Shown here: one piece after another, positions 40 to 49,330 of the stretch
How positions within the stretch are numbered: position 1 is the first letter of the stretch
Layout of the letters: every line of letters starts with the position of its first letter
IMG/VR virus record: IMGVR_UViG_3300032287_003123
Coordinates: 1,147 to 65,146 of that record
Direction: 5' to 3' (one strand)
Source of the DNA: a virus
Lineage: Duplodnaviria; Caudoviricetes
DNA length: 64,000 nucleotides
Notes under the pieces: model-generated
What the model saw: only the letters and a program-made list of their open reading frames with translations
Databases searched by the model: none
What the model was told of the DNA's origin: nothing
Made by a program: the position numbers and the translations under genes

Positions 40-68
40 TTGAATTTGTCAGTTCAATGATGTATAAT
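40..68 (+). promoter_or_regulatory. Promoter TTGAAT-17-TATAAT containing TGTCAG-N10-TATAAT (PafBC/RecA-NDp-like)
   Basis: TGTCAG 47-52, TATAAT 63-68, upstream of ORF 90. Confidence 0.7.
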
Positions 69-89
69 TGATATAAGAGGGGTGGAGCA

Positions 90-620
90 ATGACTTGTAT
101 TGCAGTTGTTCGTGATGAAATAAATAATAAGGTTTACATGGCTGGTGATCGTGGTGCATCTGACGATGGAACAATTTTAGCATTGTCTAGTCCAAAAGTT
201 TGGAAACTAGGACCTTATTTAATTGGTTATGCAGGTGCTATGGATGGTGAGCGTATTCGTTATAATTTTAATCCTTATGTTCCAGACATTAAAGACACTG
301 ACAAATTTATGCAAACTAAATTTATCAAACAACTTAAAAATTTTTATAATGATTTTTGGGTAGATACATCTAAAGATGGAGACCTTGGTTTAATTATTGC
401 AGTTCGTGGAAATATATATGAGCATAGTTCTGCAGATATGTCTTTATCTAAATATACCTTGCCGTATTTGGCTATGGGTTCAGGTGCAGAATATGCCTAT
501 GGATATTTAAATGCTACAGAAAAAACAAAAGATGCAAGAAAACGAGTGGTGGGCGCTGTAAATTCAGCAATTAAATTTAGCCCATCATGCATGGGTCCAG
601 TTGACGTTGTGAGTGTTTAG
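90..620 (+). CDS. HslV/proteasome beta-like Ntn-hydrolase peptidase
   Basis: N-terminal M-T-C-I (Thr nucleophile after Met removal), AGDR, SPKV and AMGSGAEYAYG motifs. Confidence 0.75.
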   Translation: MTCIAVVRDEINNKVYMAGDRGASDDGTILALSSPKVWKLGPYLIGYAGAMDGERIRYNFNPYVPDIKDTDKFMQTKFIKQLKNFYNDFWVDTSKDGDLGLIIAVRGNIYEHSSADMSLSKYTLPYLAMGSGAEYAYGYLNATEKTKDARKRVVGAVNSAIKFSPSCMGPVDVVSV

Positions 621-635
621 GGGTATACTTATAAT

Positions 636-842
636 ATGAATCATTCACACGAAGAAGATTTATCTCCAGAAGAACAAGAGTTTGGTATCTGGCTTGAAAA
701 CGGTATTGAAAGAGGTTGGGTAACACCGCCATACTGCAATACTCATGATGGTGGATACGAATACATGGGGGAAGAAGAGCAAGAGGAATGGGAAGCAGGT
801 GGCGACCCATGCCAACATGTCGTCAGATTGATGATATCGTAA
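636..842 (+). CDS. hypothetical acidic protein
   Basis: ORF with CNTHDG and DPCQHV motifs; TATACT just upstream. Confidence 0.6.
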   Translation: MNHSHEEDLSPEEQEFGIWLENGIERGWVTPPYCNTHDGGYEYMGEEEQEEWEAGGDPCQHVVRLMIS

Positions 843-860
843 AAATAGAAAAGGAATAAA

Positions 861-1730
861 ATGAAAAAAGTAGTGGGACTATTAGCAGTAATGCTTGGCT
901 TTGTTGTAATTCAACCAGTTCAGGCAGCACCAACAGATACAATTGCAATTATTGATACAGCGATTGATTCTTCAAAAAATGCAAATGTGGTTTATGAAGT
1001 TTGCTTTACACTAAAGACATGCCCAAATGGAACTTCTTTTCAAGAAGGAAAAGGTTCTGCTATGGTTAATGATTGGAATGTAAAGGGTATTGATCACGGC
1101 TTCAATGTTTCACAGGCAGCAGTATTGGCAAATCCTTCTGTAAAGATTGTATTTATCCGTATCTCTGACATTAACGTTTATCCTACATTTAGTGCTATGC
1201 ACAATGATGGAAGGTCTTTGTCACGTGCAATTGAGTGGGTATCAAATAATGCTGCAAAGTTTAACATTAAGGCAGTTTCAATTAGCCAATCAAGAGTTAA
1301 CTTCACTGCTGGAACTTGTCCAAAAGATTTAGTTTTTGAGTCAGCAGTAAAGAATCTTAATGCTCAAAACGTTGCAACATTTGTTGCTACAGGAAATGAT
1401 TCAAGAAAGAATCAAGTAGGTTTTCCTGCATGTGTTGATGGAGTTGTAGGTGTTGGAGCACTTCGTCCAACTGTATCAACTAAGCCTTACCCTGAGTCAT
1501 CCTATACAGCATTGGCAAACTATACAAATGTTGGTCCTGGACTAGACTTGGTTGCTAGAGGAGATGCAGATGTAAAGGCATATGGTGGATGGGATATTAC
1601 AGTCACAGGAACATCAATTGCTACTCCAATTGCAGCATCCCTTGCTGTTGCAAAAAATGATTCAACAAATTGGAATGTGTTTATTTCTAGTTTGCCAAAG
1701 TCAGCGAATTACCAGTACATTTCAAAGTAG
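861..1730 (+). CDS. secreted subtilisin-like S8 serine peptidase
   Basis: signal peptide; catalytic D (IIDTAID), H (DHG), oxyanion N (ATGND), S (GTSIATP). Confidence 0.85.
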   Translation: MKKVVGLLAVMLGFVVIQPVQAAPTDTIAIIDTAIDSSKNANVVYEVCFTLKTCPNGTSFQEGKGSAMVNDWNVKGIDHGFNVSQAAVLANPSVKIVFIRISDINVYPTFSAMHNDGRSLSRAIEWVSNNAAKFNIKAVSISQSRVNFTAGTCPKDLVFESAVKNLNAQNVATFVATGNDSRKNQVGFPACVDGVVGVGALRPTVSTKPYPESSYTALANYTNVGPGLDLVARGDADVKAYGGWDITVTGTSIATPIAASLAVAKNDSTNWNVFISSLPKSANYQYISK

Positions 1731-1797
1731 TGTATAATAGGTAGTGCACCTGCCAAATGGGGGTGCACTAACTTATTCGCTTGAAAGGGGAATAAAA

Positions 1798-2226
1798 ATG
1801 GTAACACAATTCGCAATGGATCTATTTAATGATCCTTTTTTTATTGGCTTTAACAGAGAGTTAGGCCGTCTTAACAATGCACACAAGATCAATTCACAGT
1901 CATACCCTCCATATGATCTTCTAAAACTAGATGAAGATACATACAGGCTATCTATTGCGGTAGCAGGGTTTGGCAAAGATAATATTGATGTGTCAGTGGA
2001 CAATGGAACACTTATTATTAAGGGTGAAATTGTTGAAGTAACAGATGCTGAGATTGTTCACAAGGGAATTGCTGGTCGTAAGTTCACACGATCTTTTGCT
2101 CTTGGTGAATACATGGAAGTAACTGGAGCAGAAATGAAGGATGGTATGCTGCATATTAATGTAGATCGTATTGTTCCTGAAGAAAAGAAGCCAAAAACTA
2201 TTGACATCAAGGTTGCCAAAAAGTAA
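1798..2226 (+). CDS. small heat-shock protein Hsp20/IbpA family
   Basis: YPPYDL...AVAGF...HKGIAGRKFTRSF...DGMLHI; RBS AAGGGG before ATG 1798. Confidence 0.92.
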   Translation: MVTQFAMDLFNDPFFIGFNRELGRLNNAHKINSQSYPPYDLLKLDEDTYRLSIAVAGFGKDNIDVSVDNGTLIIKGEIVEVTDAEIVHKGIAGRKFTRSFALGEYMEVTGAEMKDGMLHINVDRIVPEEKKPKTIDIKVAKK

Positions 2227-2272
2227 TCTTTAGGATATAATAGTAATACAGAATCAATAAATTTTATTGATA

Positions 2273-2300
2273 CAGCCTGGGTACGCTGATAAACTGCCCA
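2273..2300 (+). ncRNA. small H-type pseudoknot element upstream of endolysin
   Basis: CAGC-CTGGGTAC-GCTG-ATAAAC-TGCCCA; compensatory variant of the CTGAGCA/TGCTCA family. Confidence 0.6.
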
Positions 2301-2319
2301 TTTACTTGATGGAGGAATA

Positions 2320-3102
2320 ATGGCAGTAAAAGGTTCGGTAGAGGCAATCATTGAGGTTGCAAAGAAAGAAATTGGAACTATTGAAGGTCCAAAAGATAAC
2401 GAAACAAAGTATGGCGCATGGATGAAAGTAAACTTCCAACCTTGGTGTCAGTCATTTGTTTCTTGGTGTGCAATGACAGCAGGGGTTGCAAAGTTCCCTA
2501 AGTCAGCATCAACAGTTGCAGCATCAGATCAGTTTAAGAAAGAAGGTCGTTGGGCAGATGCTCGTAATGACGATCCAACTCCAGGAGACTGGATTTATTT
2601 TGATTTCCCAGAAGATGGCGTAAATCGTATTTCACACGTAGGTCTTTGCATTAAGAACAATGGCGATGGAACTATCCAAGTTATTGAGGGAAACACTTCA
2701 GGAACTGCTAAGGGGGACCAACGCAATGGCGGAATGTGTGTTGAAAAGACTCGTGGTTATGTAAAAGATAACAAGAAGAAGTTGATGAATGCAGTTGTTG
2801 GTTGGGGTCGTCCAGTTTATGCTGGTGAAGAAAATGCACCATTGCTTTCAAAGCGTGATGCAGCACCTGCAGCAGCAACAACTTCTCCCGCAAAAAAGGC
2901 AGCACCTGCAGCATTTAAAACATTAAAGGTGGGATCAAAGGGGCAAGCAGTTAAGAATGTTCAAACACTTCTTGATCTTAAGGCAGATGGTGATTTTGGT
3001 CCAGGTACCGAAAAGGCTGTAAAAGCATTTCAAGCATCTAATAAGTTAAAGGTTGATGGCATTGTAGATGTTATTACTTTTAAGGCATTAAAGGCTAATT
3101 AA
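2320..3102 (+). CDS. endolysin: CHAP amidase plus C-terminal peptidoglycan-binding domain
   Basis: PWCQSFVSW, SHVG, IEGNT; C-terminal LKVGSKG..V..VQ..L...ADGDFGPGTEKAVKAFQ. Confidence 0.88.
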   Translation: MAVKGSVEAIIEVAKKEIGTIEGPKDNETKYGAWMKVNFQPWCQSFVSWCAMTAGVAKFPKSASTVAASDQFKKEGRWADARNDDPTPGDWIYFDFPEDGVNRISHVGLCIKNNGDGTIQVIEGNTSGTAKGDQRNGGMCVEKTRGYVKDNKKKLMNAVVGWGRPVYAGEENAPLLSKRDAAPAAATTSPAKKAAPAAFKTLKVGSKGQAVKNVQTLLDLKADGDFGPGTEKAVKAFQASNKLKVDGIVDVITFKALKAN

Positions 3103-3104
3103 GT

Positions 3105-3680
3105 ATGGTTAACTCAAAAAATGAATTTTTATTGCCAAAAGATTTAGAAGGACCTGGCATATCTTCTTATCAAGGAATTTGGGCTGATTCAGAAGAAACT
3201 ATTTTTGAATTAGAAAATTATTACAATCTAGATTCTTTTGCGTCTTTAAATGAAATGTCTAAAGACAGTGATTCAATAAACCAAATACTAAAAAGGTATA
3301 CAAAAATACTTCAAATAATTGTTTTTGGATATAATTTTCATTTTGGAGTTAATGAAGGATTTTACATAAACGAAGATTCTTTTGTTTTAAAGTTTGAAGA
3401 TGGTGAAGAACGTCAACTTAGTTATGGTGGAGGCACACAAACTGGTAGATCAATGTGTGCAATTCTTTATTTAAATGATGATTATGATGGTGGAGAGATT
3501 GAATTTGTTAACTTTAATTTAAAAATTAAGCCTAAAAAGGGAACACTTTTACTATTTCCATCTAACTTCTTATATTCATATAAAGAAAATAAAGTAACAA
3601 ATGGAACTAAATATTCAATTGTTAACTTCATTCACGATAGACCAATTGACGAAATATCTAAGCAAATTTTGGAACAATAA
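3105..3680 (+). CDS. 2OG-Fe(II) oxygenase (prolyl-4-hydroxylase-like) fold, metal ligands apparently lost
   Basis: LYLNDDYDGGEIEF...LLLFPSN...GTKY; no HxD or distal His at the expected positions. Confidence 0.7.
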   Translation: MVNSKNEFLLPKDLEGPGISSYQGIWADSEETIFELENYYNLDSFASLNEMSKDSDSINQILKRYTKILQIIVFGYNFHFGVNEGFYINEDSFVLKFEDGEERQLSYGGGTQTGRSMCAILYLNDDYDGGEIEFVNFNLKIKPKKGTLLLFPSNFLYSYKENKVTNGTKYSIVNFIHDRPIDEISKQILEQ

Positions 3681-3856
3681 TGCCTATATATGATTACAAA
3701 TGCACACAGTGCTCTAGTACTGTTGAATACAAAAGAGATTTTGGCGACAGCACTGAGCCTGTGTGTTGTAATCAAACAATGCAACGCCAATGGCAATCGC
3801 CAGGGGTACTTTTTAATGGTTCTGGATTTTATTCCACAGACAACAGAAAGAAGTAG
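3680..3856 (+). CDS. FmdB-family zinc-ribbon protein (not in ORF track)
   Basis: MPIYDYKCTQC...PVCC...GVLFNGSGFYSTD. Confidence 0.85.
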   Translation: MPIYDYKCTQCSSTVEYKRDFGDSTEPVCCNQTMQRQWQSPGVLFNGSGFYSTDNRKK

Positions 3857-3862
3857 TACAAT

Positions 3863-4093
3863 ATGAATACAATGATTGAACAAGAAGAGCAAGTATGGCT
3901 TTTAGACGCAACAGATCGTTGTGATAGATGTTCTGCTCAAGCATACGTAAAGGTAATTGGAAACTCTGGCGAACTGCTATTTTGTAGTCATCATTACAAT
4001 AAGGTAGTAGATAATGCTGTGGGATATGACAAAATCATGAAGTTTATGGTTGAAATAATTGATGAAAGAAAGAGACTAGAAAATGGGCAATAA
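3863..4093 (+). CDS. actinobacterial/actinophage small Zn-binding protein
   Basis: LDATDRCDRCSAQAYV...LLFCSHH. Confidence 0.7.
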   Translation: MNTMIEQEEQVWLLDATDRCDRCSAQAYVKVIGNSGELLFCSHHYNKVVDNAVGYDKIMKFMVEIIDERKRLENGQ

Positions 4094-4226
4094 TAAGCAT
4101 CCATTTAATGCTACGCAAATTAAAGATGGCAGAATTGTTAAGTTAAGAAAAGATGGTCGCATTAAGGCTGACCTAGGTCCATATTATGCTAATCATAATA
4201 AAGTAAAACCAAAGAGAGTTGGCTAA
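4083..4226 (+). CDS. small basic hypothetical protein (47 aa, not in track)
   Basis: MGNNKHPFNATQIKDGRIVKLRKDG...; fills the gap between flanking genes. Confidence 0.55.
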   Translation: MGNNKHPFNATQIKDGRIVKLRKDGRIKADLGPYYANHNKVKPKRVG

Positions 4227-4230
4227 TCGT

Positions 4231-4638
4231 ATGTATGAATATTATGTTCGTAAAGTAGAGAATGTCGTAGATGGGGATACCATTGACGTTCTTATTGATC
4301 TGGGTTTTGATATCCTATTTGCATCTCGTGTAAGACTGGCTGGTATTGATACCCCTGAGTCTCGCACAAAGGATATTGCCGAGAAAGCACTTGGTCTTGA
4401 ATCAAAAGAATATCTTAAGAAGCATTTAAAGGATGCAAAGTCTGTTATTATTAAAACTGAGAAGATGGACTCATCAGAAAAATATGGGCGTATTCTTGGT
4501 TGGCTTTATGTTAATGGAGACACAGAGTCTGTTAATGATAAGATGATTAATGATGGATATGCTTGGGGATATATGGGTGACACAAAAGTTAAAGACTTTG
4601 ATGCACTTGCTAAAGCCAGAAAGAAGTCTGGAAAATAA
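4231..4638 (+). CDS. thermonuclease (SNase-like)
   Basis: VVDGDTID, RVRLAGIDTPE, KYGRILG. Confidence 0.92.
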   Translation: MYEYYVRKVENVVDGDTIDVLIDLGFDILFASRVRLAGIDTPESRTKDIAEKALGLESKEYLKKHLKDAKSVIIKTEKMDSSEKYGRILGWLYVNGDTESVNDKMINDGYAWGYMGDTKVKDFDALAKARKKSGK

Positions 4639-4907
4639 TGAAACATGTAATGTATTTTACTGCCGAATGGTGTAATCCATGCAAAAGAATTAAGCCAATA
4701 GCAGAAGAACTAGAAAGAGAAGGTTTTGTTAATTTTCAAATAATTGATGCTGATGATAATCCAGAACTTTGTAAGAGTTTTGAAGTTCGTGGAGTGCCAA
4801 CCTTTATCGTTATTGAAGATGGAAAAGAAGTAAGAAGAGTTACTGGCGCACCTCCAACAAGAGAAGATTTCATTAACTTTATAGAAGGCAAAAATGGATC
4901 CAATTGA
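4638..4907 (+). CDS. thioredoxin
   Basis: FTAEWCNPCK, VRGVPTF. Confidence 0.9.
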   Translation: MKHVMYFTAEWCNPCKRIKPIAEELEREGFVNFQIIDADDNPELCKSFEVRGVPTFIVIEDGKEVRRVTGAPPTREDFINFIEGKNGSN

Positions 4908-5220
4908 TCAAACTATTGATGAATTAATCTTAAGTGGTGCAGTAGAGATTGCTGCAATTGACTCTATAACTGGAGAGCCTTTATACTCTTTTAGTCCTAA
5001 AATTAAAGAGGTAATGCCAAAACTATATGAGCAACACATGACAGAGGTAAACAGAGATATTATGGCTTTATGGGAAAAGGGTTTTTTAAACATAGAAATG
5101 CTTACTGATAACCCATTGGTTACCCTTACAGATAAGGCTTTTATTGATGATGAGATTGTAAAAATACCAAAAGAACTTCAATTAAGCCTGTCTGAAATTA
5201 AAAGACTTTTGGTTAAGTAA
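4894..5220 (+). CDS. hypothetical protein
   Basis: ORF overlapping thioredoxin end. Confidence 0.6.
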   Translation: MDPIDQTIDELILSGAVEIAAIDSITGEPLYSFSPKIKEVMPKLYEQHMTEVNRDIMALWEKGFLNIEMLTDNPLVTLTDKAFIDDEIVKIPKELQLSLSEIKRLLVK

Positions 5221-5254
5221 TCTGCTATAATCATGTTAGACAATAGGAGGCATC

Positions 5255-5815
5255 ATGCCATATAAAGTAGGAGCAAAGGGCTCATACGGCTGTTCTGGCT
5301 ACCCTGCAGTTAAAGAGGGTGGAGAAGTAATGGGATGCCACGACACAAGAGCAGAAGCAGCAGCACAAATTTATGCAATAAACCGTAGTGAGGGTAATAT
5401 TGGCAAGGCAATGCCTAATCTTAAAGAAGGCGATTTTGCCATGACTGCACATGGTGGAGATGAAGAGTTTCATGTTGGACAAGTAGTTCATGTTATGCGT
5501 GAAGGAATGCTTGGAGTTCCTGGTGGAGAATATACTCTTGAAGCGACACCAGAAAATCCTGCTGTAATGATTCAATTATTTGAGCAAGAAGAAGAAGGAT
5601 TTTGGGAAGCAACAAGACTATATACAGCATGCATGATGAGTTTGTATATTCCAATTGATCCACTCCCAACGGAGCCAGAGATGTCAATTGAAGATATGCC
5701 TAACATGAATGCACAACCAGACTTAATGGATGCATATGATGCGTCAATTGGAAAAAATGTTTACAAAACCGTATGGGGCGGAACAATTTTTGATTTGAGT
5801 CAGTTTACAAAATAA
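5255..5815 (+). CDS. hypothetical phage protein
   Basis: TGCTATAAT promoter and AGGAGG RBS; N-terminal MPY...GCH.T..EA..Q module. Confidence 0.65.
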   Translation: MPYKVGAKGSYGCSGYPAVKEGGEVMGCHDTRAEAAAQIYAINRSEGNIGKAMPNLKEGDFAMTAHGGDEEFHVGQVVHVMREGMLGVPGGEYTLEATPENPAVMIQLFEQEEEGFWEATRLYTACMMSLYIPIDPLPTEPEMSIEDMPNMNAQPDLMDAYDASIGKNVYKTVWGGTIFDLSQFTK

Positions 5816-5829
5816 AAAAGGGGTAGAGC

Positions 5830-5988
5830 ATGAATGATTTAACAATTGAAGAACTTAAGCAACTAATTGTTTTTTATAAGCAAAAAAGTTCGGATCTTGA
5901 GTTTGAACTTTTGAAAACACAACTAATGATTAATAGGGCAGTTACAACTAAAGTTCAACCAGAACCAAAAAACAAAAAGTCTGAATAA
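5830..5988 (+). CDS. small coiled-coil hypothetical protein (not in track)
   Basis: MNDLTIEELKQLIVFYKQK..., RBS upstream. Confidence 0.55.
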   Translation: MNDLTIEELKQLIVFYKQKSSDLEFELLKTQLMINRAVTTKVQPEPKNKKSE

Positions 5989-5999
5989 AAGGTCATGAT

Positions 6000-6419
6000 G
6001 TGCAATATTTTTTGCTTGTACTATTGACATTGTGCCTTAGTTCCTATATAATTTATAGAGGAAGAAAAGTAAAAATTTTTCCAGGTATGGTATATAGCCA
6101 AAGCAGTATACATATCATGATAAAAAACTTTCTTCCAAAAAATTTATACGAAAGGCCTATGCAAAAGTCTCAAGCATTAAAACATGCAGAGAAAAACAGT
6201 GTAAAGGTAATTTTCATAGAGGGGAAAGCATATTGGGTAAGCAATAATATATTTTATTGTGCAGAAGCAATTGGTGGAAATGTAAATATAGATACAACAG
6301 AACCAGTTGATACAAACAATATGTCAAAAAGAGATATTGATAAGATGTTGTTTATATTGGACAACTTAAAGAATGGAAATGATGATGATAGTAGTAGTGC
6401 AGGGAACAAAAGAATTTAA
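6000..6419 (+). CDS. hypothetical protein (start uncertain)
   Basis: ORF track. Confidence 0.5.
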   Translation: MQYFLLVLLTLCLSSYIIYRGRKVKIFPGMVYSQSSIHIMIKNFLPKNLYERPMQKSQALKHAEKNSVKVIFIEGKAYWVSNNIFYCAEAIGGNVNIDTTEPVDTNNMSKRDIDKMLFILDNLKNGNDDDSSSAGNKRI

Positions 6420-6735
6420 CGATTACCAGGTTTTTCTTCGTGCAATGGGAGTCGCTATGTCTGCTATGCAAGAAGAAGATAAAGAATTTTTAATATATTC
6501 TGTTGGTCCTGCAAAAATTAACTCAATGGTTTCAGAATTTTCTAATCTTTCTGAAAGAGGCATGAAGTCAAGAGGAAAAAAGATTAAATTTTTTAAGGTT
6601 CCGCCTTCTTATGTTGAAGAAAACATTGATTATGTAAATCATTTAGCATTTTTAAGCAAGCCAAAAGAACCACTTTCAAAGTTAGTCGCATTAGCCGAAC
6701 TCAAAAATATTGAAGTCGGAATTTACAGATACTAA
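6373..6735 (+). CDS. hypothetical protein, possible SLOG/YspA-like fold
   Basis: IVVVQGTKEFNDY resembles the SLOG N-terminal motif. Confidence 0.45.
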   Translation: MEMMMIVVVQGTKEFNDYQVFLRAMGVAMSAMQEEDKEFLIYSVGPAKINSMVSEFSNLSERGMKSRGKKIKFFKVPPSYVEENIDYVNHLAFLSKPKEPLSKLVALAELKNIEVGIYRY

Positions 6736-6744
6736 GGATATAAA

Positions 6745-6954
6745 ATGATTATAAATAAATTAGAAACAATGGAAGCAATTGTCAAGAAGAATCGTAATCT
6801 TCGCTGGGATGGATGGAACGTAATGGATCTTAAGAAAACAGACATTGCCAGAACATCCCCTCAAGGAATTAGAATTAATGGTGAATGGTACCTAAACAAA
6901 GTTTATGTATTAAATAGTAATGGCTGGGATATTCCGAATAAATACAAGGAGTAA
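6745..6954 (+). CDS. hypothetical protein
   Basis: ORF with RBS AAGGA. Confidence 0.6.
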   Translation: MIINKLETMEAIVKKNRNLRWDGWNVMDLKKTDIARTSPQGIRINGEWYLNKVYVLNSNGWDIPNKYKE

Positions 6955-6957
6955 CTA

Positions 6958-7245
6958 GTGAAGCAGCATTTATGGAAAGATGAAGCCAAGTGTCTTGGTT
7001 TAGAAACTGATTTATATTTTGATAAATATGAAGATGATATTGATTTAAGATTCAACATAGATAATTTTTGCGAATCCTGTCCAGTTGCAAAAATATGTTT
7101 TGCTAATGGTGTATCTGGCAAAGAGTGGGGTGTTTGGGGTGGTGTATACTTAGAAGGTGGAGAAATCTCTAGGGAGTTCAACAAACACAAGACAAAAGAA
7201 AAATGGGGTGAGGTGTGGAAATCTCTGACAACGGAAATGAATTAA
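6958..7245 (+). CDS. whiB: WhiB-family Fe-S transcription factor
   Basis: W...AKC...C-ES-C-PV...C...GVWGG (four Cys plus GVWGG turn). Confidence 0.9.
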   Translation: MKQHLWKDEAKCLGLETDLYFDKYEDDIDLRFNIDNFCESCPVAKICFANGVSGKEWGVWGGVYLEGGEISREFNKHKTKEKWGEVWKSLTTEMN

Positions 7246-7514
7246 CACCGTTTGAAAGTATTTGTGAAATACTTGCCGATTTATGGATTAATCATAAGCA
7301 TGAAAAAACATTTCAAGATTTTATATCTTATAATGATTTAGGGTTGCCCCTTGCTTTTTTAATTGATTCAGAATTAGTCATACCAACCGAACTAGCAAAA
7401 AGATATATTGAAGAAACTTGGAACATTCTTCTTAACTCTCTTGAAATTGAAAATGATACTGGTTTTGAATCTTTAGAAGATTTGTTTAATTATTCTAAAA
7501 TGGAAGAACAATAA
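7215..7514 (+). CDS. hypothetical protein
   Basis: ORF track. Confidence 0.55.
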   Translation: MEISDNGNELTPFESICEILADLWINHKHEKTFQDFISYNDLGLPLAFLIDSELVIPTELAKRYIEETWNILLNSLEIENDTGFESLEDLFNYSKMEEQ

Positions 7515-7744
7515 TGTATACATATGATATGCGTAAGGCTGTACACTCAATCATTCCTCCAAAAAATTTTGGTGTTCAAATTATTGACAATGATAGTTTT
7601 TTAACTATTAAACTTAATGAAATGGATTTTTTACCTATGGCTCATGATGAAAAAATAGAGGCTGTTGAGTATGTTGCAAGAGTAAAAAAAGCATTAGAGC
7701 AAAATGGTGCAATTGTTTTGGTTACAAGAGAGGCAGTTAAATGA
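7514..7744 (+). CDS. hypothetical protein
   Basis: translationally coupled ORF. Confidence 0.6.
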   Translation: MYTYDMRKAVHSIIPPKNFGVQIIDNDSFLTIKLNEMDFLPMAHDEKIEAVEYVARVKKALEQNGAIVLVTREAVK

Positions 7745-9309
7745 AAGATATTGTTGTAGTTGGTGGTGGTTCTGCAGGATGGATGACAGCAGCAATACTA
7801 ATAAAATCTTTTCCTGAAAAAAATATTTATGTACTTGAAAGCAATGATATTCCACGAGTTGGGGTTGGAGAAAGTACATACGAAGGCATAAACCATTATC
7901 TTGAGTATTTAGGAATTGACAGAGAATCATTTTTTGAATATACAAATGCTACAGTAAAACTTGCAATTCAATTTAGAAATTTTTATAAAGAATCTGGTGA
8001 GCCAGATTTCATTTATCCTTTTGGAGCGCCTACCTTTACTAAAGAAGGATCATCTTTAGATGATTGGATGGCAAGAAAAAATTTAGATAAAACTATACCA
8101 GTTACAGATTTTGCAGAGTCATATTTTCCAGCAGCACACCTAGTTAAACATAATAGGCTAACTGATAAAAACCATTATGGTAATTTTACACAAACTCTTA
8201 ATACTGCATTACATTTTGACGCAATAAAGTTTGCAGATTGGCTAAAGAATAATTATTGTTTGCCACAAAATGTTAAGCAAATTGTAGGAACTATAGAAAA
8301 AATTACCACAAACGACAATGGTGTAGATAAGTTATTCTTGTCGGATGGAACAACTGTTTCTGCAGATCTATTTGTTGATTGCACTGGGTTTAAAAGTTTA
8401 TTATTAGACAAAACTCTTAATGAAGAATTTATTTCTTATACTGATCTACTTCCTAATACAAACGCATGGGCAACACAAATACAGTATAAGGAACCAGAAA
8501 TTGAAATTGAAAATGTTACAAGATGCACAGCCCTAAAAAATGGCTGGTGTTGGAATATACCTCTTTTTTCTAGATTAGGTTCTGGCTATGTATATTCTGA
8601 TAAGTATACAACACATGAAGATGCACTTGAAGAATTTAAGAAATACTTAATGACAGAGTTAAAAATACCAAGAACAAAAGAAGAAGTTGAAAGCCTAGAG
8701 TTTAGGAATATACAGATGAGAGTTGGTATTCATAAACGTACTTGGGTCAAAAATGTAGTTGCAATTGGTCTTGCTGCAGGTTTTATTGAGCCACTAGAAA
8801 GTAATGGGCTTTTTACTGTTCATGAATTTTTGTTCTGTTTAATCAAAACATTACAGCATGATAAAATTTCTCAATGGGATAGAGACGTATACAACAAGGC
8901 TACAAAAAAGATATATGACAACTTTGTAGAGTTTATTAGACTACACTATGCTCTTAGTTTAAGAGATGATTCTGAATATTGGAAAAATAATTTCAATAGA
9001 ACATTTTTTAATGATGAAAACAGTTCAAGTGTTTTTAGTCACTTAAATGACATGGCAACAATTAAAATGAACTCAATAAGTTCAATGCCATTAAGAGGTG
9101 GAAATAGTTGGATTGCAACTGGGATGAACTATTTTATTCTTGATAGCGTTGCTTTGGCTTTTTCTGATATACTGTATGGTAATCTGGATAAGGAAAAAAC
9201 AAAAATAGTGTTTGAAAATTTAGATAATAACAAAAAAATATGGAAAAATTTAGCACTTGAATCAGAAACTTCGTATCAATACATAAAAAGGAAATATCAT
9301 AGTGAATAA
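7741..9309 (+). CDS. flavin-dependent tryptophan-halogenase family protein (PrnA-like)
   Basis: GGGSAG FAD motif, VGEST, ATVK catalytic Lys, WCWNIP, FIEPLES. Confidence 0.88.
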   Translation: MKDIVVVGGGSAGWMTAAILIKSFPEKNIYVLESNDIPRVGVGESTYEGINHYLEYLGIDRESFFEYTNATVKLAIQFRNFYKESGEPDFIYPFGAPTFTKEGSSLDDWMARKNLDKTIPVTDFAESYFPAAHLVKHNRLTDKNHYGNFTQTLNTALHFDAIKFADWLKNNYCLPQNVKQIVGTIEKITTNDNGVDKLFLSDGTTVSADLFVDCTGFKSLLLDKTLNEEFISYTDLLPNTNAWATQIQYKEPEIEIENVTRCTALKNGWCWNIPLFSRLGSGYVYSDKYTTHEDALEEFKKYLMTELKIPRTKEEVESLEFRNIQMRVGIHKRTWVKNVVAIGLAAGFIEPLESNGLFTVHEFLFCLIKTLQHDKISQWDRDVYNKATKKIYDNFVEFIRLHYALSLRDDSEYWKNNFNRTFFNDENSSSVFSHLNDMATIKMNSISSMPLRGGNSWIATGMNYFILDSVALAFSDILYGNLDKEKTKIVFENLDNNKKIWKNLALESETSYQYIKRKYHSE

Positions 9310-9319
9310 TGTAAATGCA

Positions 9320-9457
9320 ATGTCAATGATAAAAATGGCTATTGGATCAATAAGGTGTAAAAAAAATGGTCACAATCTTGATGAAAAAGTTTCATGCCCA
9401 TTTACAGGAAAATCATATCGTGGATGCATGGTGTGTGGAAAGGTAATAACTATATGA
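9320..9457 (+). CDS. small Cys/His Zn-finger-like protein (not in track)
   Basis: RCKKNGH...SCPFTGKSYRGCMVCG. Confidence 0.55.
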   Translation: MSMIKMAIGSIRCKKNGHNLDEKVSCPFTGKSYRGCMVCGKVITI

Positions 9458-9882
9458 GTTTAACGGTTATTTTGTCAGTTTGTCTTTTTTCAATGTCTGT
9501 TGCTTATCTTACATCAGTATATAATTTTAATAAACTTCGTTCTAGACATCAAAAACTTTTTATTGAGATGATGGTTCTTGAAAAAATAGTAAATGAATCT
9601 GAAGAATTAAAGATACAAAGCGATGAAAGTGTTCATAAGGAAAACTTTATTAAATTTTTATCTGATTCAAGAGATTGGGCCTATAAATATATTGAGGATG
9701 TACAGTCTGGGCTAAGCAATTTTATTGTTACCATTGAACCAGAAATTAAATATTTTAAAGAGTTTGGTGGTGTTCTTGGTGAAAGTGCTCCAAATTATTA
9801 CTCTATGAAAAAAATAACAGAAGAGTATGAAAAGTTAAAAACTTTATTACCAAAAGAAGAAAACACAAATTATGAAAAATAA
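9454..9882 (+). CDS. membrane-anchored hypothetical protein
   Basis: probable start ATG 9454 overlapping previous stop; N-terminal hydrophobic helix. Confidence 0.55.
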   Translation: MSLTVILSVCLFSMSVAYLTSVYNFNKLRSRHQKLFIEMMVLEKIVNESEELKIQSDESVHKENFIKFLSDSRDWAYKYIEDVQSGLSNFIVTIEPEIKYFKEFGGVLGESAPNYYSMKKITEEYEKLKTLLPKEENTNYEK

Positions 9883-10603
9883 AAAAGTATTTTTTGTTCC
9901 TAGAAGTCAGATTGTTTCCGATATAAATAGGTATCCACAACCATCCAAAAAATATATTCCTGAATGGTATAAAAAAATGAGTGGATCTTATAAAGAAAAA
10001 AATGGTTTCTTAGTTCCTGGACCTAAAAGTTGTATGCCATTTTTAGATTCTTTTACAAGTGGCTATACAATGGAATTGGCAACAGATGTTGTTATTCAAT
10101 ATAACGGAAAAGATCCTAAAACAAACAGAGATGACATTAGTTATACTTGGGCTGGTGGTGGTAATAACCTTACGGAAAGACCTATAACAACAAGACAAGA
10201 AGAAACTGATTCACCTTTTGCTCTTCCAAAGTTTGATGGATACTATGATACAGAATTTCAATGGTATACCATGTGGGATACAAAAACGCCACCAGGGTAT
10301 AGTACCGTATATCATCATCCGAATAATAGGTTTGACTTGCCGTTCCACACCTTTACTGGAGTAATAGATACGGATACCTGGAATGGTGATGGTCCAATTC
10401 CATTCCTACTAAAAGAAGGTTTTGAAGGGGTTATTCCAGCAGGTACACCGATTATACAGTTTACCTTCATTAAAAGAGAAAACTGGAAATCTGAAGCATT
10501 AGAGTTTGATCAAAAGAAAAGAAGAAGAGAAAAACATATGGTCAAAAGACATATTATGAATGGATACAAAAAAGAACATTGGAAAAAGAAAGAGTTTGAT
10601 TAA
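9872..10603 (+). CDS. dUTPase-fold-like paralog 1
   Basis: PEWYK, KSCMPFLD..GY, TPPGYS, GVIDTD, GTPIIQ. Confidence 0.6.
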   Translation: MKNKKVFFVPRSQIVSDINRYPQPSKKYIPEWYKKMSGSYKEKNGFLVPGPKSCMPFLDSFTSGYTMELATDVVIQYNGKDPKTNRDDISYTWAGGGNNLTERPITTRQEETDSPFALPKFDGYYDTEFQWYTMWDTKTPPGYSTVYHHPNNRFDLPFHTFTGVIDTDTWNGDGPIPFLLKEGFEGVIPAGTPIIQFTFIKRENWKSEALEFDQKKRRREKHMVKRHIMNGYKKEHWKKKEFD

Positions 10604-10604
10604 T

Positions 10605-10763
10605 ATGAAAGAAATACTTCTATCAACATTAACAGGTTTTGGATGTGGCGTAGTATTTGCTGCATTCAAATTGCCAGTACCAGCACCACCAGTTTTTGCG
10701 GGAGTCGCAGGAATTATTGGTTTATGGATTGGCTTTACAGTTATAACTAATATAATATCCTAG
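10605..10763 (+). CDS. XapX-domain (DUF1427) small membrane protein
   Basis: G..FAAFKLPVPAPPVFAGVAGIIGLWIG. Confidence 0.8.
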   Translation: MKEILLSTLTGFGCGVVFAAFKLPVPAPPVFAGVAGIIGLWIGFTVITNIIS

Positions 10764-10774
10764 GAGGAAAATAT

Positions 10775-11053
10775 ATGAATGAACAAATTAAGGCACTACT
10801 AGCATCATACGGACGATCAGTCCTTGGTGCAGGCCTTGCACTATACATGTCTGGGGTAACAGACCCTAAGACTCTTGCTTACTCACTATTGGCTGCGCTT
10901 GCGCCAGTTGCATTGAGAGCACTCAACCCTAATGATAAGGCGTTTGGTCGTCTTCCAGATGTAGCAGAAGTTGATGCTGCAGTTAAGAAGGCAACCGTTA
11001 AGAAGGCTCCTGTCAAGAAGGCTGTCAAGAAGGCTGCACCAAAGAAGAAGTAA
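10775..11053 (+). CDS. holin-like membrane protein with Lys/Ala-rich tail
   Basis: two hydrophobic segments, LNPND..FG motif, KKA repeats. Confidence 0.5.
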   Translation: MNEQIKALLASYGRSVLGAGLALYMSGVTDPKTLAYSLLAALAPVALRALNPNDKAFGRLPDVAEVDAAVKKATVKKAPVKKAVKKAAPKKK

Positions 11054-11060
11054 TTCTTTA

Positions 11061-11095
11061 GGGAGGGATATGCTTATCTAGCCTATCCCTCTCTT
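11061..11095 (+). terminator. intrinsic terminator-like hairpin
   Basis: GGGAGGGATA...TATCCCTCT followed by pyrimidine tract. Confidence 0.55.
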
Positions 11096-11097
11096 TC

Positions 11098-11829
11098 TTG
11101 GGTAATATTATGTATATATTTCAAAATCAAATTAAACCTAAATCTAAAACTGCATTAATAATGTGTACATACATTAGGTTAAAAAACATGCCTAAATTAT
11201 TAACAAAAATACAATTACAAACAAAAAAAGATTTTGATTTTTATATATCCAATAATGCAGAAAATCAAGATGTAAAATTGTTAAATTATTTTAAAAAATA
11301 TGGTTCAGATCTTGGAGTAAATGTTTATGTAAAAAATTATAATAATTTATATAAACAGTTTTCAAGGTTTTATATGGCAAAAGAATTAGCGATGCAGGGT
11401 TACGAAAAAATAATATTTGTGGATGATGATGAAGTTTTACCTTCTTCTTTTATTCAAGACTGCTATAACCAGTATGACCCAAAACATATAAAATCATTTT
11501 ATGCACATAAATTTGAACATGATTACTGGGAAAAGGTAAAACTTAAGGATGGTGAAACTGGAAACTATGCTGGAACTGGTGGTTTGATATGTTCTGCAAA
11601 GTTGTTTCTTGATACAAACTTTTTTAAATGTCCAGAAGAATATTATATAATTGATGATCTTTGGCTATCATATTATGTTTTAAATTTTACAGACTATACA
11701 ATATCTTTACTTAATACTGATATACAATTTATACATGACGATAAGGGAACCTTTAAAACTTTGCATGAACTTAAAAAAGATTTTTCAAATAAATATATAC
11801 TAAAAATAAAAGAGGCACATGATGATTAA
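11098..11829 (+). CDS. GT-A fold glycosyltransferase
   Basis: IIFVDDD DxD motif, GTGG, DDLWLS. Confidence 0.7.
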   Translation: MGNIMYIFQNQIKPKSKTALIMCTYIRLKNMPKLLTKIQLQTKKDFDFYISNNAENQDVKLLNYFKKYGSDLGVNVYVKNYNNLYKQFSRFYMAKELAMQGYEKIIFVDDDEVLPSSFIQDCYNQYDPKHIKSFYAHKFEHDYWEKVKLKDGETGNYAGTGGLICSAKLFLDTNFFKCPEEYYIIDDLWLSYYVLNFTDYTISLLNTDIQFIHDDKGTFKTLHELKKDFSNKYILKIKEAHDD

Positions 11830-12526
11830 TTTTGGATCTTTATGGATTGGTAATCCACTAAGCAAGGTAGAGCAAACTGCTTTATCATCAATAATTTATC
11901 ACGGTCATTCCATTACCCTATTTGTTTATAATATGGATCTAAAAGTTCCAAAGGGTGTCGTAAAAGCAGACGCTAATCAATTTATACCTGAGTCTGATAT
12001 TTTCAAGGTACAGAATTCTTACGGACCATTTGCAGACATTTTTAGATACAAGATGATAAAAGAACTAGGACTGATATGGACAGATACAGACTCAATATGC
12101 TTAAGATCTGATTGGGATTTTGGAGACTACATATTTGGTTTTGAAGAACCTGGAAGGCTGTCAAACAGTATTCTTGGAATGCCAAAGGATTCTGATCTTA
12201 TTGACATGATGCTGCTGGGGGCTAATAAACAGGACAAAGATAAGATAATTTGGTCTGAAATTGGACCAGACTTACTTACAAAGGCAACAAAAAAACTTAA
12301 TTTGACAAAGCATGCACAGCAGCCAGAAGTTTTCTACCCAATACATTTCTGGCAATGGAAGAAGATTTGGCTTAAGGATTATGCTAAAGAGGTAGTTAAT
12401 ACATGTCAAAATGCACATACATTGCAGGTTTGGAATCAATTTTTAAATAGAGAAGGAATTGACAAGAACAAGTTACCTAAAGGATCAGCAATAGAGTATT
12501 ATCATAATAAATTTGTTATTGATTAA
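11819..12526 (+). CDS. alpha-1,4-glycosyltransferase-like (GT32 DxD family)
   Basis: SLWIG, FADIFRY, WTDTDSICL, IGPDLLT. Confidence 0.8.
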   Translation: MMINFGSLWIGNPLSKVEQTALSSIIYHGHSITLFVYNMDLKVPKGVVKADANQFIPESDIFKVQNSYGPFADIFRYKMIKELGLIWTDTDSICLRSDWDFGDYIFGFEEPGRLSNSILGMPKDSDLIDMMLLGANKQDKDKIIWSEIGPDLLTKATKKLNLTKHAQQPEVFYPIHFWQWKKIWLKDYAKEVVNTCQNAHTLQVWNQFLNREGIDKNKLPKGSAIEYYHNKFVID

Positions 12527-29559: not shown

Positions 29560-29699
29560 TTTTTTGCTCTCTTTTCTTTGGTGGTTGATATTTATTATAG
29601 GGGGTGGAACTGACATTTCCCCCGAAGGGGGGAGAGTTCTTACTTACGACATTGGGCTAGAACACTCTCCTAAACTGCCCCTGTTTCGCTATGAAAGGC

Positions 29700-33280: not shown

Positions 33281-33496
33281 TTAGTTTTCCTTTCTTACTG
33301 CAATTGTACGGAAAGTCTTGCGACCCCAAGTATTGCTACCGCTATATGGTGCAATTTCTACAAGATAAGTTTCGCAACCATCATACCAAATTGGCTGAGG
33401 GTGCAATTCTGCACTTATGATTTCTCCACGCATTGTTTTGGAGATATATTCTTTCCCAATTAGTAGGGATTGGACTGAGTATACATTGGCTGGCAT
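33281..33496 (-). CDS. hypothetical protein
   Basis: RBS GAAGGTGG; downstream of promoter 33530. Confidence 0.6.
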   Translation of the reverse strand: MPANVYSVQSLLIGKEYISKTMRGEIISAELHPQPIWYDGCETYLVEIAPYSGSNTWGRKTFRTIAVRKEN

Positions 33497-34842
33497 ATTG
33501 CCACCTTCTTTCTTTTTCTTTATATTCTAAGTGTACCAAATTAGTCTGACATTATCAAATCCAAATTCGGACATTTAGGACATATTCTTTGTGATTTTCA
33601 TCACACGGACTTATTTACTTATTTAATTGTATAGATAGAATCTTAACACATAAAAGCCAAAAAGTCAACACGACACGCCGTAAACTAGGGGGTGATTTAT
33701 ATCACACGTAAACCCAAACTTGAGGGTGCGACACGCCCGACTGCGGGTCGAAAAAATCTAGTTGAAAGTTAAATCATTTTTTATGATCACTCTTTTAAGT
33801 GCAACCAAATTGAATAAATAAATAAGCCCAAGAAAAAAAAGAATGCAGCGTTTCCGTTTAAATAAAATTCTTTCATTTTTCTAGCACCTCAATCAGTTCA
33901 TCTGAAAATGCAATTGCAGTTTCATTTTGTTGTTCAGGCGTGAGCGTTGCCCACAAATAACCAAGCAAATAAGATTTTCCGCTATCTTCATTTCCATTAC
34001 GAATTGCGATAGCCATTTTTTTTACTTCTTGAAGTAATTGCATATCAGTTACCATTTATTAACCCCAGCATTCTTGGCATGTAGCCATTAGGTATTGAGA
34101 ATCTTCAAGAGCAACCTCAACGGCTGGCTCTTCGCAAATTTGACAAGATAAAGTTATCATTTCTTTTTTCATTAGTGTTGCTCCTCGCAATTTTCATAGG
34201 GATTAAATTCGCAGAATTGGCAACCCATCTGCTCAAAGTGTTCATCGCAAAAATAGCGGTATTGCAATTCTTCACAACAAATAAATTGGTCGTGATTTGT
34301 TAAGTAAGGGCTACCGAATCCGATAGGTGAAAGAACAAGTGTAGGGGTACTCATTATTTAGATACCTTCCAATCAGTCCACATTGGTAGACGCTCAGGGT
34401 CGGTATCGTTATACCAACGCTCAATATTTTGTTCACATTCCATGCAGAATGTAAATTGGTCATCATTTACTGATGAGATAGCAGGAACGAATGGAATATG
34501 TGTTTTACACATTGTGTTTAATGAAGTCATTTGGACTTCCTTTCTTTAGGGGGTTTACTTCTTTTTCAACCTTCTATACATAGAAGTATAGCAGGGGGGT
34601 CTGACATCTACTAGCCAGTAATCATACCAAAACGGACATTTTGAAATGTGATGTAGGTCATGTGGATAACTTGAGCGTGAAATGGGGGTGTGATCTACGT
34701 CATGTGGATAACTTTTTTTCGACATTTTTTTTCGACCTCATGTGGTGCAAATCACACTGAAAATGTCCGATTTGTCCGTGTCTAAACTTGACTTTTTGGG
34801 AAATGTATGCTAGTATTACTACTATAAAATTAAATAAAAAAT

Positions 34843-42113: not shown

Positions 42114-42326
42114 ATGACTCCACAAGATTGGGCTGCATTAGTTTTAACTCTTTTAAGTATTTTTGGTATTCTTGTCGGCGGAGTTAAATTTTTAGTAAAA
42201 CATTATCTATCAGAACTTAAACCAAATTCTGGATCATCGCTAAAAGACTCCGTTAATAGATTAGAAGAAAAAACTGACAAACTTCACGATATGATGTTTG
42301 AACATCTTCAAAATCACTCTAAATAA
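42114..42326 (+). CDS. holin-like membrane protein
   Basis: N-terminal TM, ELKPNSGSSLKD coiled coil. Confidence 0.55.
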   Translation: MTPQDWAALVLTLLSIFGILVGGVKFLVKHYLSELKPNSGSSLKDSVNRLEEKTDKLHDMMFEHLQNHSK

Positions 42327-47999: not shown

Positions 48000-48013
48000 G
48001 TTAAGGGGTATAA

Positions 48014-48247
48014 ATGACAGAGAGACGGGCAGCAAAGCCGTGGGATCTTATTGATCCAACAAAAAAGAAAGTAAGTAAAGAGATTGCAGAAGAAAGAATG
48101 GAGATCTGTAAGGGTTGTCCAAGACTTATTCAAGCAACAAAGCAATGCAAAGAATGTGGGTGTATAATGGTCCTTAAGACAAAACTAGCATCAGCATTTT
48201 GTCCGATAGGAAAATGGGAAGCCATAGAAACAGAGGAAGTGAAATAA
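48014..48247 (+). CDS. small Cys-rich protein (RxxICxxC...CxxCGC...CPIGKW)
   Basis: paralog of 39006-39206. Confidence 0.65.
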   Translation: MTERRAAKPWDLIDPTKKKVSKEIAEERMEICKGCPRLIQATKQCKECGCIMVLKTKLASAFCPIGKWEAIETEEVK

Positions 48248-48248
48248 T

Positions 48249-48560
48249 ATGACAGAAGAGACTGGACCAAAAGAGGGTGTAGTGGGAGATATAAACCCTC
48301 CAACAGAAGTTAATACAGCCCCTATTCATGAACAAGCAAGAGCAATTGCCTTTGTTGTTGATGATGAAATTGCAGAGATCATTTTTACCGATGATAGACT
48401 GGCTGCAGTGTTTTTAAGCGATCCTACAATAATTGAGATTACAAGCCTAATGTCTGATCCATTGCTACATCCAGCAACAGGTTGGGGATATGATTCTGAT
48501 ACAAACTCATTTATTGGAAGAGATTCAGAAGACAATGTAGTTTCTTTGCCACTAAACTAA
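48249..48560 (+). CDS. hypothetical acidic protein
   Basis: AFVVDDE...RLAAVFLSDP. Confidence 0.55.
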   Translation: MTEETGPKEGVVGDINPPTEVNTAPIHEQARAIAFVVDDEIAEIIFTDDRLAAVFLSDPTIIEITSLMSDPLLHPATGWGYDSDTNSFIGRDSEDNVVSLPLN

Positions 48561-48570
48561 TAACTTAATA

Positions 48571-48614
48571 AAAAAAATACCCCCTAAGCACAAAAGCCTA
48601 GGGGGATTTTTTTA
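48571..48614. terminator. bidirectional intrinsic terminator
   Basis: A-run, CCCCCTAAGC/GCCTAGGGGG stem, T-run between convergent genes. Confidence 0.75.
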
Positions 48615-48627
48615 TTCCCATTAAATT

Positions 48628-49167
48628 TTAACCAGGAAACTTTTCCATCCACATTCTGGTCTTTGGGGTTATACCTTTCCAAGAAGACCAGTCGTCTCCA
48701 CCTCTGGACATATAGTATGCAATCTCTGCATTCTTGACTGGATTGAATAGGTCAGCGTTATGGTCCAAATCAAATTTTTCTCTTCTATCTGGGCCAAGAC
48801 CATCAATCATATTTATTTGAAACATCCCATAGGATGAATCACCAGTCTTATGGTTTCCATTAAATGCTAAAGGACGACCATTAGACTCTTTTTTGGCTAT
48901 AGCCCAAGCCACAACCAAATCTTTTCCCTTAAAGCCTACAAGTGACAAAAGTTCTTTCAACTGAACATCTGTTAGATGTGTCATGTTTTCATAACTTTCT
49001 AGTTTTTTGGCCTTAGAAACAACTAATGCCGCTTTTTGGGCGGCAGCAGTAACTTCAACGGGCTTAGTTAGTAAATTATTTTTAGAGGTAGCATTTGCAT
49101 TATTTGCAAAAATAGCAGATGAAACCACCAAAATCATAATTCCCAACCACACTTTTGTTTCTTTCAT
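48628..49167 (-). CDS. secreted lysozyme-like/lytic transglycosylase
   Basis: signal peptide; AIAKKES, SSYGMFQIN, W.SW. Confidence 0.8.
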   Translation of the reverse strand: MKETKVWLGIMILVVSSAIFANNANATSKNNLLTKPVEVTAAAQKAALVVSKAKKLESYENMTHLTDVQLKELLSLVGFKGKDLVVAWAIAKKESNGRPLAFNGNHKTGDSSYGMFQINMIDGLGPDRREKFDLDHNADLFNPVKNAEIAYYMSRGGDDWSSWKGITPKTRMWMEKFPG

Positions 49168-49330
49168 AGTTTTTACCTCCTAAGAAACGAATGAGACCTT
49201 TTTGGTCTCATAATCTAGTATAACACAATCTACTGACAAGTACAACATCAATGTCCGTTTTGTCCCATATGATTATAACAATTTGATAACAAAATATATT
49301 ATTAGTTATATATGATATAATAAAAGAACT

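Follow-up and report, generated by a model that had tools for sequence, protein, structure and literature searches.

Which factor would read a set of phage promoters that look like those of a bacterial DNA-damage activator? The question is raised by a 64-kb stretch of viral DNA, called the window throughout (bases 1147-65146 of the 65-kb IMG/VR virus record IMGVR_UViG_3300032287_003123; CheckV completeness 59%; G+C ~36%), which belongs to an uncultured phage of about 112-119 kb. An original prediction, made from the letters of this DNA, had listed twelve sites at which a TGTCRG hexamer (the box) stands exactly ten nucleotides ahead of a TAnnnT -10 element, and had ascribed them to the actinobacterial activator PafBC. 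Judged by their sequence, these sites are real promoters of one class, with a GTC-containing box at -28 to -23, a spacer of exactly 10 nt and a SigA-type TAnnnT. We consider it slightly better than an even chance that this class is read by host RNA polymerase-SigA together with host PafBC, or a close PafBC-like activator of the helix-turn-helix (HTH)-WYL type, bound at the -26 box.

Box promoters at a fixed spacing

The motif TGTCRG-N10-TAnnnT has 12 exact matches in the window, where 1.00 is expected: 100 dinucleotide shuffles gave a mean of 1.00 (standard deviation 0.99, largest count 4), and none of the 100 reached 12. When the spacing was scanned from N4 to N19, N10 gave the 12 matches and each other spacing 0-4, which confirms the original observation. 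A search that presupposed no box led to the same hexamer. Upstream of the 240 TGnTAnnnT sites of the window, TGTCAG at the N10 position outnumbers every other fixed-offset 6-mer.

Eleven of the twelve listed sites are exact matches at their predicted coordinates, and the twelfth (32233-32254) is the TGTCAC variant, which had been named as such. All twelve lie directly upstream of genes, as had been stated, with 6-54 nt between the end of the -10 box and a same-strand ATG. Two of these gaps measure 6 nt (ATG at 25261 and 26396), and the remaining sites have an AAGGAG-type ribosome site. Because the ATG follows just 6 nt past the -10 box, leaderless mRNAs are predicted at 25261 and 26396; such mRNAs are common in actinobacteria. 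The weak -35-like hexamers that had been described at 17 nt are present as TTGCAN at four sites (26424, 27719, 28753 and 32254) and as TTGNNN at four more (47, 29913, 33551 and 49238). The putative promoters are as follows.

47-68, plus strand: -26-box promoter TGTCAG-N10-TATAAT, heading an operon at 90-12526 (S8 peptidase, HSP20, CHAP lysin, SNase, WhiB, others)
25268-25289, minus strand: -26-box promoter TGTCAGTGGC...TATGAT, ahead of open reading frame (ORF) 24980-25261, leaderless start predicted
26403-26424, minus strand: -26-box promoter with TTGCAG as -35-like hexamer, ATG at 26396, leaderless start predicted
27698-27719, minus strand: -26-box promoter TGTCGG-N10-TATGAT with TTGCAT as -35-like hexamer, ahead of the DUF932 gene 26651-27667
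28732-28753, minus strand: -26-box promoter ahead of ORF 28439-28702
29594-29615, minus strand: -26-box promoter directly past a terminator-like hairpin, ORF start at 29559
29892-29913, minus strand: -26-box promoter ahead of ORF 29700-29861
30802-30823, minus strand: -26-box promoter ahead of the GP88-family gene 30047-30769
32233-32254, minus strand: variant box TGTCAC-N10-TAAGAT with TTGCAA as -35-like hexamer, ahead of ORF 32051-32197
33530-33551, minus strand: -26-box promoter ahead of ORF 33281-33496
34585-34606, minus strand: -26-box promoter, first of the leftward block, ahead of ORF 34354-34530
49217-49238, minus strand: -26-box promoter ahead of the SLT lysozyme-like gene 48628-49167
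49252-49273, plus strand: possible divergent variant TGTCCG-N10-TATGAT, weak with one mismatch, back to back with 49217-49238 and ahead of ORF 49331-49735
42258-42279, minus strand: extra exact match that the original prediction did not list; T-run spacer, no TG, no same-strand gene start downstream

Given its T-run spacer, the missing TG and the missing gene start, the match at 42258-42279 is probably due to chance.

To follow the motif beyond the window, we used the DUF932 protein encoded at 26651-27667, which has 433 relatives in IMG/VR. The loci of the best 80 (91-96% identical; L009-L088) were fetched with up to 10 kb of flank per side, 1.35 Mb in total. These loci contain 701 motif matches at N10 and 6-83 at the other spacings between N6 and N15, the neighbouring spacings N9 and N11 giving 18 and 6. 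The matches share the strand of the genes in 639 of the 701 cases. At the DUF932 promoter the exact motif is kept in 75 of the 80 loci (52 of 57 distinct sequences), TGTC is retained in four of the five exceptions, the ten spacer bases vary freely among the loci, and a TTGCAT or TTGACT -35 is kept in most relatives. For a comparison of complete genomes we used five relatives rated 100% complete (112-119 kb). In these, 39 of 49 matches fall within a single block of ~7-10 kb, versus 8 in all in the backwards-read control. In 30 of the related loci the upstream end of the block (~8 kb ahead of the DUF932 gene) carries another box promoter, on the opposite strand.

A logo was built from 503 distinct sites of these loci. 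Beyond the search pattern it has A/T preceding the box, T at +6 (58%), G/C at +7 (85%) and +8 (83%), TG two and three bases ahead of the -10 box (T 65%, G 74%) and an A/T-rich start region. The bases outside the search pattern resemble the promoter type RecA-NDp, whose motif reads tTGTCRgtg. In all 503 sites the box stands at a constant distance from the -10, whereas the -35-like TTG is found at either 17 or 18 nt. No TTG occurs at 16-18 nt in 327 of the sites, and 119 have neither TTG nor the TG of an extended -10.

Two other ways of parsing the hexamer were rejected. TGTCAG as the -35 of a promoter on the opposite strand would require a -10 at a position where no conservation was found. TTGTCA as the -35 of a second -10, 17 nt on, finds there a weak A/T-rich signal, and N16 has 4 matches in the window versus 12 at N10.

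Further conserved words were noted around the promoters. At the DUF932 promoter a box AATGTCCGATTTRTCC follows the CRP-like site and precedes the -35 position (window ~27745-27765, and the equivalent gaps of L009-L088). In 134 of 543 promoter contexts the word ATGTCC is found at favoured distances from the TGTCAG box (-41/-40, -33 and -24). The first gene after promoter 47-68 (90-620, plus strand) is weakly similar to PF00227, the proteasome subunit family (17.8 bits, under the cut-off of that family). This is curious in that the phage promoters resemble those of a regulator encoded at the Pup-proteasome locus, and it may be noise. One metatranscriptome run contained 7% of the sampled words and 41 short contig pieces (at least 88% likeness) over parts of the early genes. 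We set these contigs aside because starts and strand are not readable from them and DNA carry-over is possible.

Likeness to PafBC promoters and candidate readers

The PafBC study gives a consensus from chromatin immunoprecipitation sequencing of tGTCgg(N10)tA(N3)T, with the guanines near-absolutely conserved across actinobacteria (PMC8635444). According to the same study, the HTH of PafB contacts positions -23 to -28 (the '-26 element') and reads the GTC triplet, PafBC wedges between region 4 of SigA and the DNA, and no -35 motif was found in the promoters described there (PMC8635444). The RecA-NDp type is said to extend to other Actinobacteria (PMC8223512). SiwR, a second actinobacterial HTH-WYL activator that senses single-stranded DNA, is described as needing the -26 region as well, via a GGA triplet (PMC10693628).

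If transcription starts 7 nt past the -10 box, the phage box occupies -28 to -23, and its core sequence, position and spacing all match the published PafBC geometry, as had been predicted. In the window and in the 80 loci, an element with a GTC core at -23 to -28 stands exactly 10 nt from a SigA-type TAnnnT. The canonical sigma-70/SigA arrangement, with a TTGACA-like hexamer 16-18 nt ahead of TATAAT, does not hold for the class as a whole. The likeness to PafBC promoters includes the T and G/C past the box; as to the -35 it is partial, this element being weak or absent in about two thirds of the phage sites and kept as a TTG in the others. The phage boxes differ in preceding small genes without known function, not repair genes, and half of the phage promoters have CRP-like sites upstream. 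The dinS promoter of M. smegmatis, which is activated by SiwR, shares HTH-WYL activation at -26 in an actinobacterium and differs in using a GGA triplet with a palindrome in place of GTC; it is known for one operon only. Since SiwR also acts at -26, activation from this position seems to reach beyond PafBC in this phylum; what points specifically to PafBC is the GTC core, unlike the GGA of SiwR.

On a PafBC-type reading, the box promoters would be read by the host RNA polymerase-SigA holoenzyme with host PafBC or a PafBC-like HTH-WYL activator. Once activated by single-stranded DNA, this protein would occupy the -26 box ('sigma adaptation'), and injected, processed or damaged DNA would thereby raise transcription of the phage small-gene block. 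The responsive block would hold the DUF932 and GP88 genes, and two further promoters of the class would drive the WhiB operon and the SLT lysozyme-like gene. With a CRP/GlxR-type site in helical phase upstream of about half of its promoters, the class looks assembled from host regulator sites. We infer three parts of this scheme: the reader of the box, the induction by single-stranded DNA and the early timing, the last drawn from the size of the genes and their homology with the early block at the genome end of Streptomyces phages.

The CRP/GlxR-like sites were identified by searching for TGTGA-N6-TCACA with at most one mismatch within 160 nt upstream of the promoters, with equal downstream windows as control. 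Upstream palindromes were found for 282 of 543 distinct promoter contexts, versus 5 matches in the downstream windows. Their centres peak near -64.5 (50), -74.5 (36) and -84.5/-85.5 (67), and a lesser peak, out of phase, stands at -69.5 (22); the main peaks are thus about one helical turn apart, as in class I CRP promoters. Four of these palindromes lie in the window.

27768-27783, unstranded: CRP/GlxR-like palindrome with 1 mismatch, centre ~-84.5 from the predicted start of promoter 27719
28801-28816, unstranded: perfect TGTGA-N6-TCACA palindrome, centre ~-83.5 from the predicted start of promoter 28753
29962-29977, unstranded: CRP/GlxR-like palindrome with 1 mismatch, centre ~-84.5 from the predicted start of promoter 29913
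33590-33605, unstranded: perfect TGTGA-N6-TCACA palindrome, centre ~-74.5 from the predicted start of promoter 33551

By analogy, since one host-type regulator site in helical phase makes a second host-type site easier to accept, these CRP-like sites would make a host-type reader of the -26 box more plausible.

We also searched for a reader encoded by the phage. No WYL domain above the cut-off of the family was found in the phage record or in any of the five complete relatives, the sole match being one of 11.8 bits in a 28-residue frame. The original suggestion of a PafBC-like activator of the phage's own therefore found no support, and with no WYL domain above the cut-off in the record or its five complete relatives a host factor is the simpler reading. 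Sigma70_r2 was absent from all five complete relatives, Sigma70_r4 gave two matches of ~13 bits among them, and no Crp-type HTH was found in any of the five. The 43 ORFs of the small-gene block and its neighbours contain no match to an HTH, sigma, WYL or other DNA-binding Pfam family; their clear Pfam matches are DUF6065, DUF4241 and the NMN transporter only. The box would then be read either by a host factor or by a phage protein that belongs to no known family. WhiB was rejected as specific reader because orthologous WhiB proteins are present in the phages Coruscant, Birchlyn, Karimac, Yaboi and Grayson, all of which are without the motif.

With searches for PafBC and phage, for RecA-NDp and for sigma adaptation and bacteriophage, we found no description of phage promoters of the PafBC type in the literature, in agreement with the novelty claimed in the original prediction. 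Among those listed, the papers on PafBC and phage concern WYL regulators of defence systems or PafBC itself. A 2025 paper, cited in PMC12848934, reportedly links pafBC to mycobacteriophage resistance.

Kinship, probable host and other promoter classes

No nucleotide match to the window was found in the phage collection. At the protein level the portal shares 44-45% identity with the portals of Streptomyces phages of ~130 kb, and three further genes were compared.

6958-7245, plus strand: WhiB-family gene, 38 bits, above the cut-off of the family; an actinobacterial marker
30047-30769, minus strand: GP88-family gene, ~50% identity to phages of the Mycobacterium cluster-A type and of Streptomyces
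1744-2226, plus strand: HSP20 gene, a member of a phage-borne HSP20 family

The WhiB protein of the window is 40-45% identical to WhiB in 136 phage records (127 of Streptomyces phages, 9 of Rhodococcus phages), and it is orthologous to the WhiB that phages of these two genera with genomes of ~130 kb carry. The whiB gene has been described as exclusive to Actinobacteriota and as a marker of actinophages (PMC10202952). Among 14 control genomes the WhiB family matched in C. glutamicum only; WhiB clusters in Atlas are viral, and a protein search with the Rhodococcus phage WhiB gave 1 match. By its WhiB gene and the hallmark genes common to cultured actinophages, the phage is itself an actinophage. 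Its genes for portal, WhiB, GP88 and DUF932 link it to large phages of Streptomyces and Rhodococcus, which makes an actinobacterial host probable. Since the relatives come from lakes and the G+C content is low, this host is probably a low-GC freshwater actinobacterium.

Several other observations touch on the host and on the extent of the phage group. CHAP lysin clusters in Atlas are viral plus one bacterial cluster whose commonest phylum is Actinomycetota, which we take as a lead only. The best 120 HSP20 matches among 90% clusters all belong to this phage group and, with the 20 nearest 50% representatives, all lie on metagenomic contigs of at most 170 kb. In a search with the DnaE of Coruscant, none of the best 120 matches was on a contig longer than 262 kb, and those with a name were all Streptomyces phages. 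A protein search for RNR in genome contigs gave 8 loci, 7 of them 81-95% identical. Contigs of the phage group that bear this RNR sit in public metagenome-assembled genomes labelled Chitinophagaceae, Flavobacterium, Bifidobacterium, Gammaproteobacteria, Luteolibacter, Bacteroidota and Beijerinckiaceae. We rejected these labels as a host signal because they span many unrelated taxa, and the phage contigs look like binning contamination. The genome labelled Bifidobacterium has WhiB solely on the phage contig. Of 121 genomes sampled from the class of one of these metagenome-assembled genomes, 62 had a WYL match; that genome and four neighbours are without WhiB outside the phage contig, which indicates that the class is not actinobacterial, and the sample was left out of the evidence. 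A 'direct terminal repeat' of relative G005 was rejected as evidence for genome ends because it is a 123-bp overlap of a circular assembly.

The motif was also sought in eight cultured actinophages (the Streptomyces phages Coruscant, Birchlyn, Karimac and Yaboi, the Rhodococcus phage Grayson and the Mycobacterium phages Bxz2, KingCyrus and Zaka), which gave 0-3 matches each, no more than the backwards-read control. Yaboi (Stanwilliamsviridae) has a block at 1.5-8.2 kb that is homologous to the block of the window, with a GP88 homologue, an Lsr2-like gene and a DUF945-annotated gene in the same order and orientation and one gap of ~110 nt per small gene. These gaps contain a terminator hairpin, the words GCCGCCCCGG..AAAGATCTT, TTGCAT or TTGACT, 17-18 nt and TGnTAGACT, with no TGTCRG. 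The early promoters of Yaboi thus resemble those of the lake phages in their setting (a GP88 homologue followed by a DUF945/DUF932-type gene), in their frequency of one per 1-2 small genes and in the skeleton of TTGCAT/TTGACT, 17-18 nt and TGnTAGACT. They differ in lacking the TGTCRG box and in having the upstream GCCGCCCCGG..AAAGATCTT box where the lake phages have CRP-like and AATGTCCG elements. Since the skeleton occurs in Yaboi without the box, the lake phages appear to have kept an ancestral skeleton and then added the box, placing it just past the -35 position and often leaving the -35 to decay afterwards. In Yaboi (L114, positions 1512-8234) the combination of hairpin, GCCGCCCCGG..AAAGATCTT and TTGCAT/TGnTAGACT recurs in nearly every gap and looks like a regulatory cassette of that phage family.

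Two promoters or promoter pairs of other types were identified in the window.

22881-22960, minus strand: two tandem perfect TTGACA-N17-TATAAT promoters with AAGGTTTG repeats, a second promoter class in an ORF-free stretch
34788-34816, plus strand: canonical-type TTGACT-N17-TAGTAT with extended TG, ahead of the rightward operon beginning at 34965

A strict TTGACA-N17-TATAAT promoter occurs at the same relative place as the tandem pair in 40 of 60 loci long enough to include it. The pair may be separately regulated and perhaps the earliest to be used. With perfect promoters of this kind in the same phage, the ordinary promoter type of the host is of the usual kind, and the box class is distinct from it. 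The stretch at 22881-22960 is also rich in A-tracts, and the words AAGGTTTG and CAAACC are repeated inside and around both promoters. The promoter at 34788-34816 stands where the 30 loci mentioned above carry a box promoter on the opposite strand, and the box type and the TTGACT/TAGTAT type seem interchangeable at this one position, ~8 kb upstream of the DUF932 gene.

Weighing the possible readers

Several points weigh against a PafBC-type reader. The fifth base of the box is A in 95% of the 503 sites and TGTCGG is rare, where the mycobacterial consensus has g. A -35-like TTG is present in 176 sites (35%; spacer 17 in 107 and 18 in 69) and the TG of an extended -10 in 299 (59%). All three features set the phage sites apart from PafBC promoters, and with the TTG and TG many box promoters may fire with SigA alone. 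The streamlined freshwater actinobacteria that are the likely hosts could have lost pafBC, and the box could have as its reader a small phage protein outside the known families. Finally, the homologous block of Yaboi has the same skeleton without the box, so the box is an add-on of either sign; on this comparison it is a lineage-specific regulatory addition, compatible with activation and with repression. The original claim that host PafBC reads these promoters is partly supported: the motif, its spacing, the actinophage kinship and the absence of a detectable WYL domain from the phage stand, and the retained TTG and TG hold the claim back.

A phage-encoded reader of the box is in our estimate improbable. 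On this explanation a phage protein of no known family would read TGTCAG in the manner of MotA/AsiA, and the match to PafBC would be one of convergent geometry. The class would be delayed-early or middle, switched on by a product of the canonical TTGACA/TATAAT promoters. Such promoters are present in the same phage (22881-22960, kept in 40 of 60 loci, and 34788-34816), and an earlier class could make the factor; most early ORFs belong to no family. The PafBC study itself compares its geometry with that of T4 MotA/AsiA (PMC8635444). The T4 middle promoters, with a MotA box at -30, share with the phage class a box in the spacer region that replaces the -35 and a host -10 that is kept. They differ in that their readers are the phage proteins MotA and AsiA, which remodel sigma region 4 ('sigma appropriation'), whereas the lake phage is without a detected reader (the MotA/AsiA families were not searched by name) and the sequence of its box is that of a site for a host activator. 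All eight cultured actinophages, from Streptomyces, Rhodococcus and Mycobacterium (genera with reported PafBC or its promoter type), are without the motif, which is expected if the reader travels with the lake phage group. However, the 43 early ORFs contain no DNA-binding, sigma or WYL family and the five complete genomes no WYL or sigma family. Moreover, the divergent operon upstream of the block uses the opposite-strand box in 30 loci and the WhiB operon also starts from a box, so that few genes lie beyond the class. That both the GTC core and the 10-nt spacing should coincide exactly with those of an activator of the host phylum is also unlikely by chance.

We assign a similarly low probability to the explanation that these are ordinary SigA promoters, composed of a weak -35 and an extended -10, in which TGTCAG is the operator of a host or phage repressor or a spacer element contacted by RNA polymerase. 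The homologous promoters of Yaboi, with TTGCAT, 17-18 nt, TGnTAGACT and no box, speak for this explanation, as do the TG in 59% and the TTG in 35% of the sites, and the box overlaps a common repressor position. A repressor site, however, needs no single-base register, and the box keeps one (701 matches at N10 versus 18 at N9 and 6 at N11) while TTG shifts between 17 and 18 nt. The 119 of 503 sites with neither TTG nor TG would be poor SigA promoters alone, and the phased CRP-like sites upstream suggest promoters that need activation. Reading by host PafBC or a close relative of it is the explanation we prefer.

With somewhat less than an even chance of being right, we propose that lytic lake phages rebuilt early promoters inherited from soil-actinophage ancestors by inserting the -26 box of host PafBC and often a phased CRP/GlxR site. 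If this is true, the take-over genes of these phages would be gated by the single-stranded-DNA alarm and the cyclic AMP state of the host. In that event these phages would be the first viruses found to co-opt 'sigma adaptation', and the promoters would offer a natural PafBC reporter system in uncultured freshwater actinobacteria. The comparison with the Streptomyces relatives would then describe a promoter class that was re-wired by the addition of a 6-bp box.

In mycobacteria and related bacteria the main DNA-damage activator is PafBC, which is known only as a switch for host defence and repair. PafBC-type boxes on a dozen or more phage promoters would represent a reverse flow, in which the single-stranded-DNA alarm of the host serves as a viral 'go' signal or the activator is soaked up. 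The phage group is very abundant in lakes, with 433 related IMG/VR stretches and thousands of near-identical metagenome proteins, and the mechanism would therefore bear on the infection of dominant freshwater actinobacteria under UV stress.

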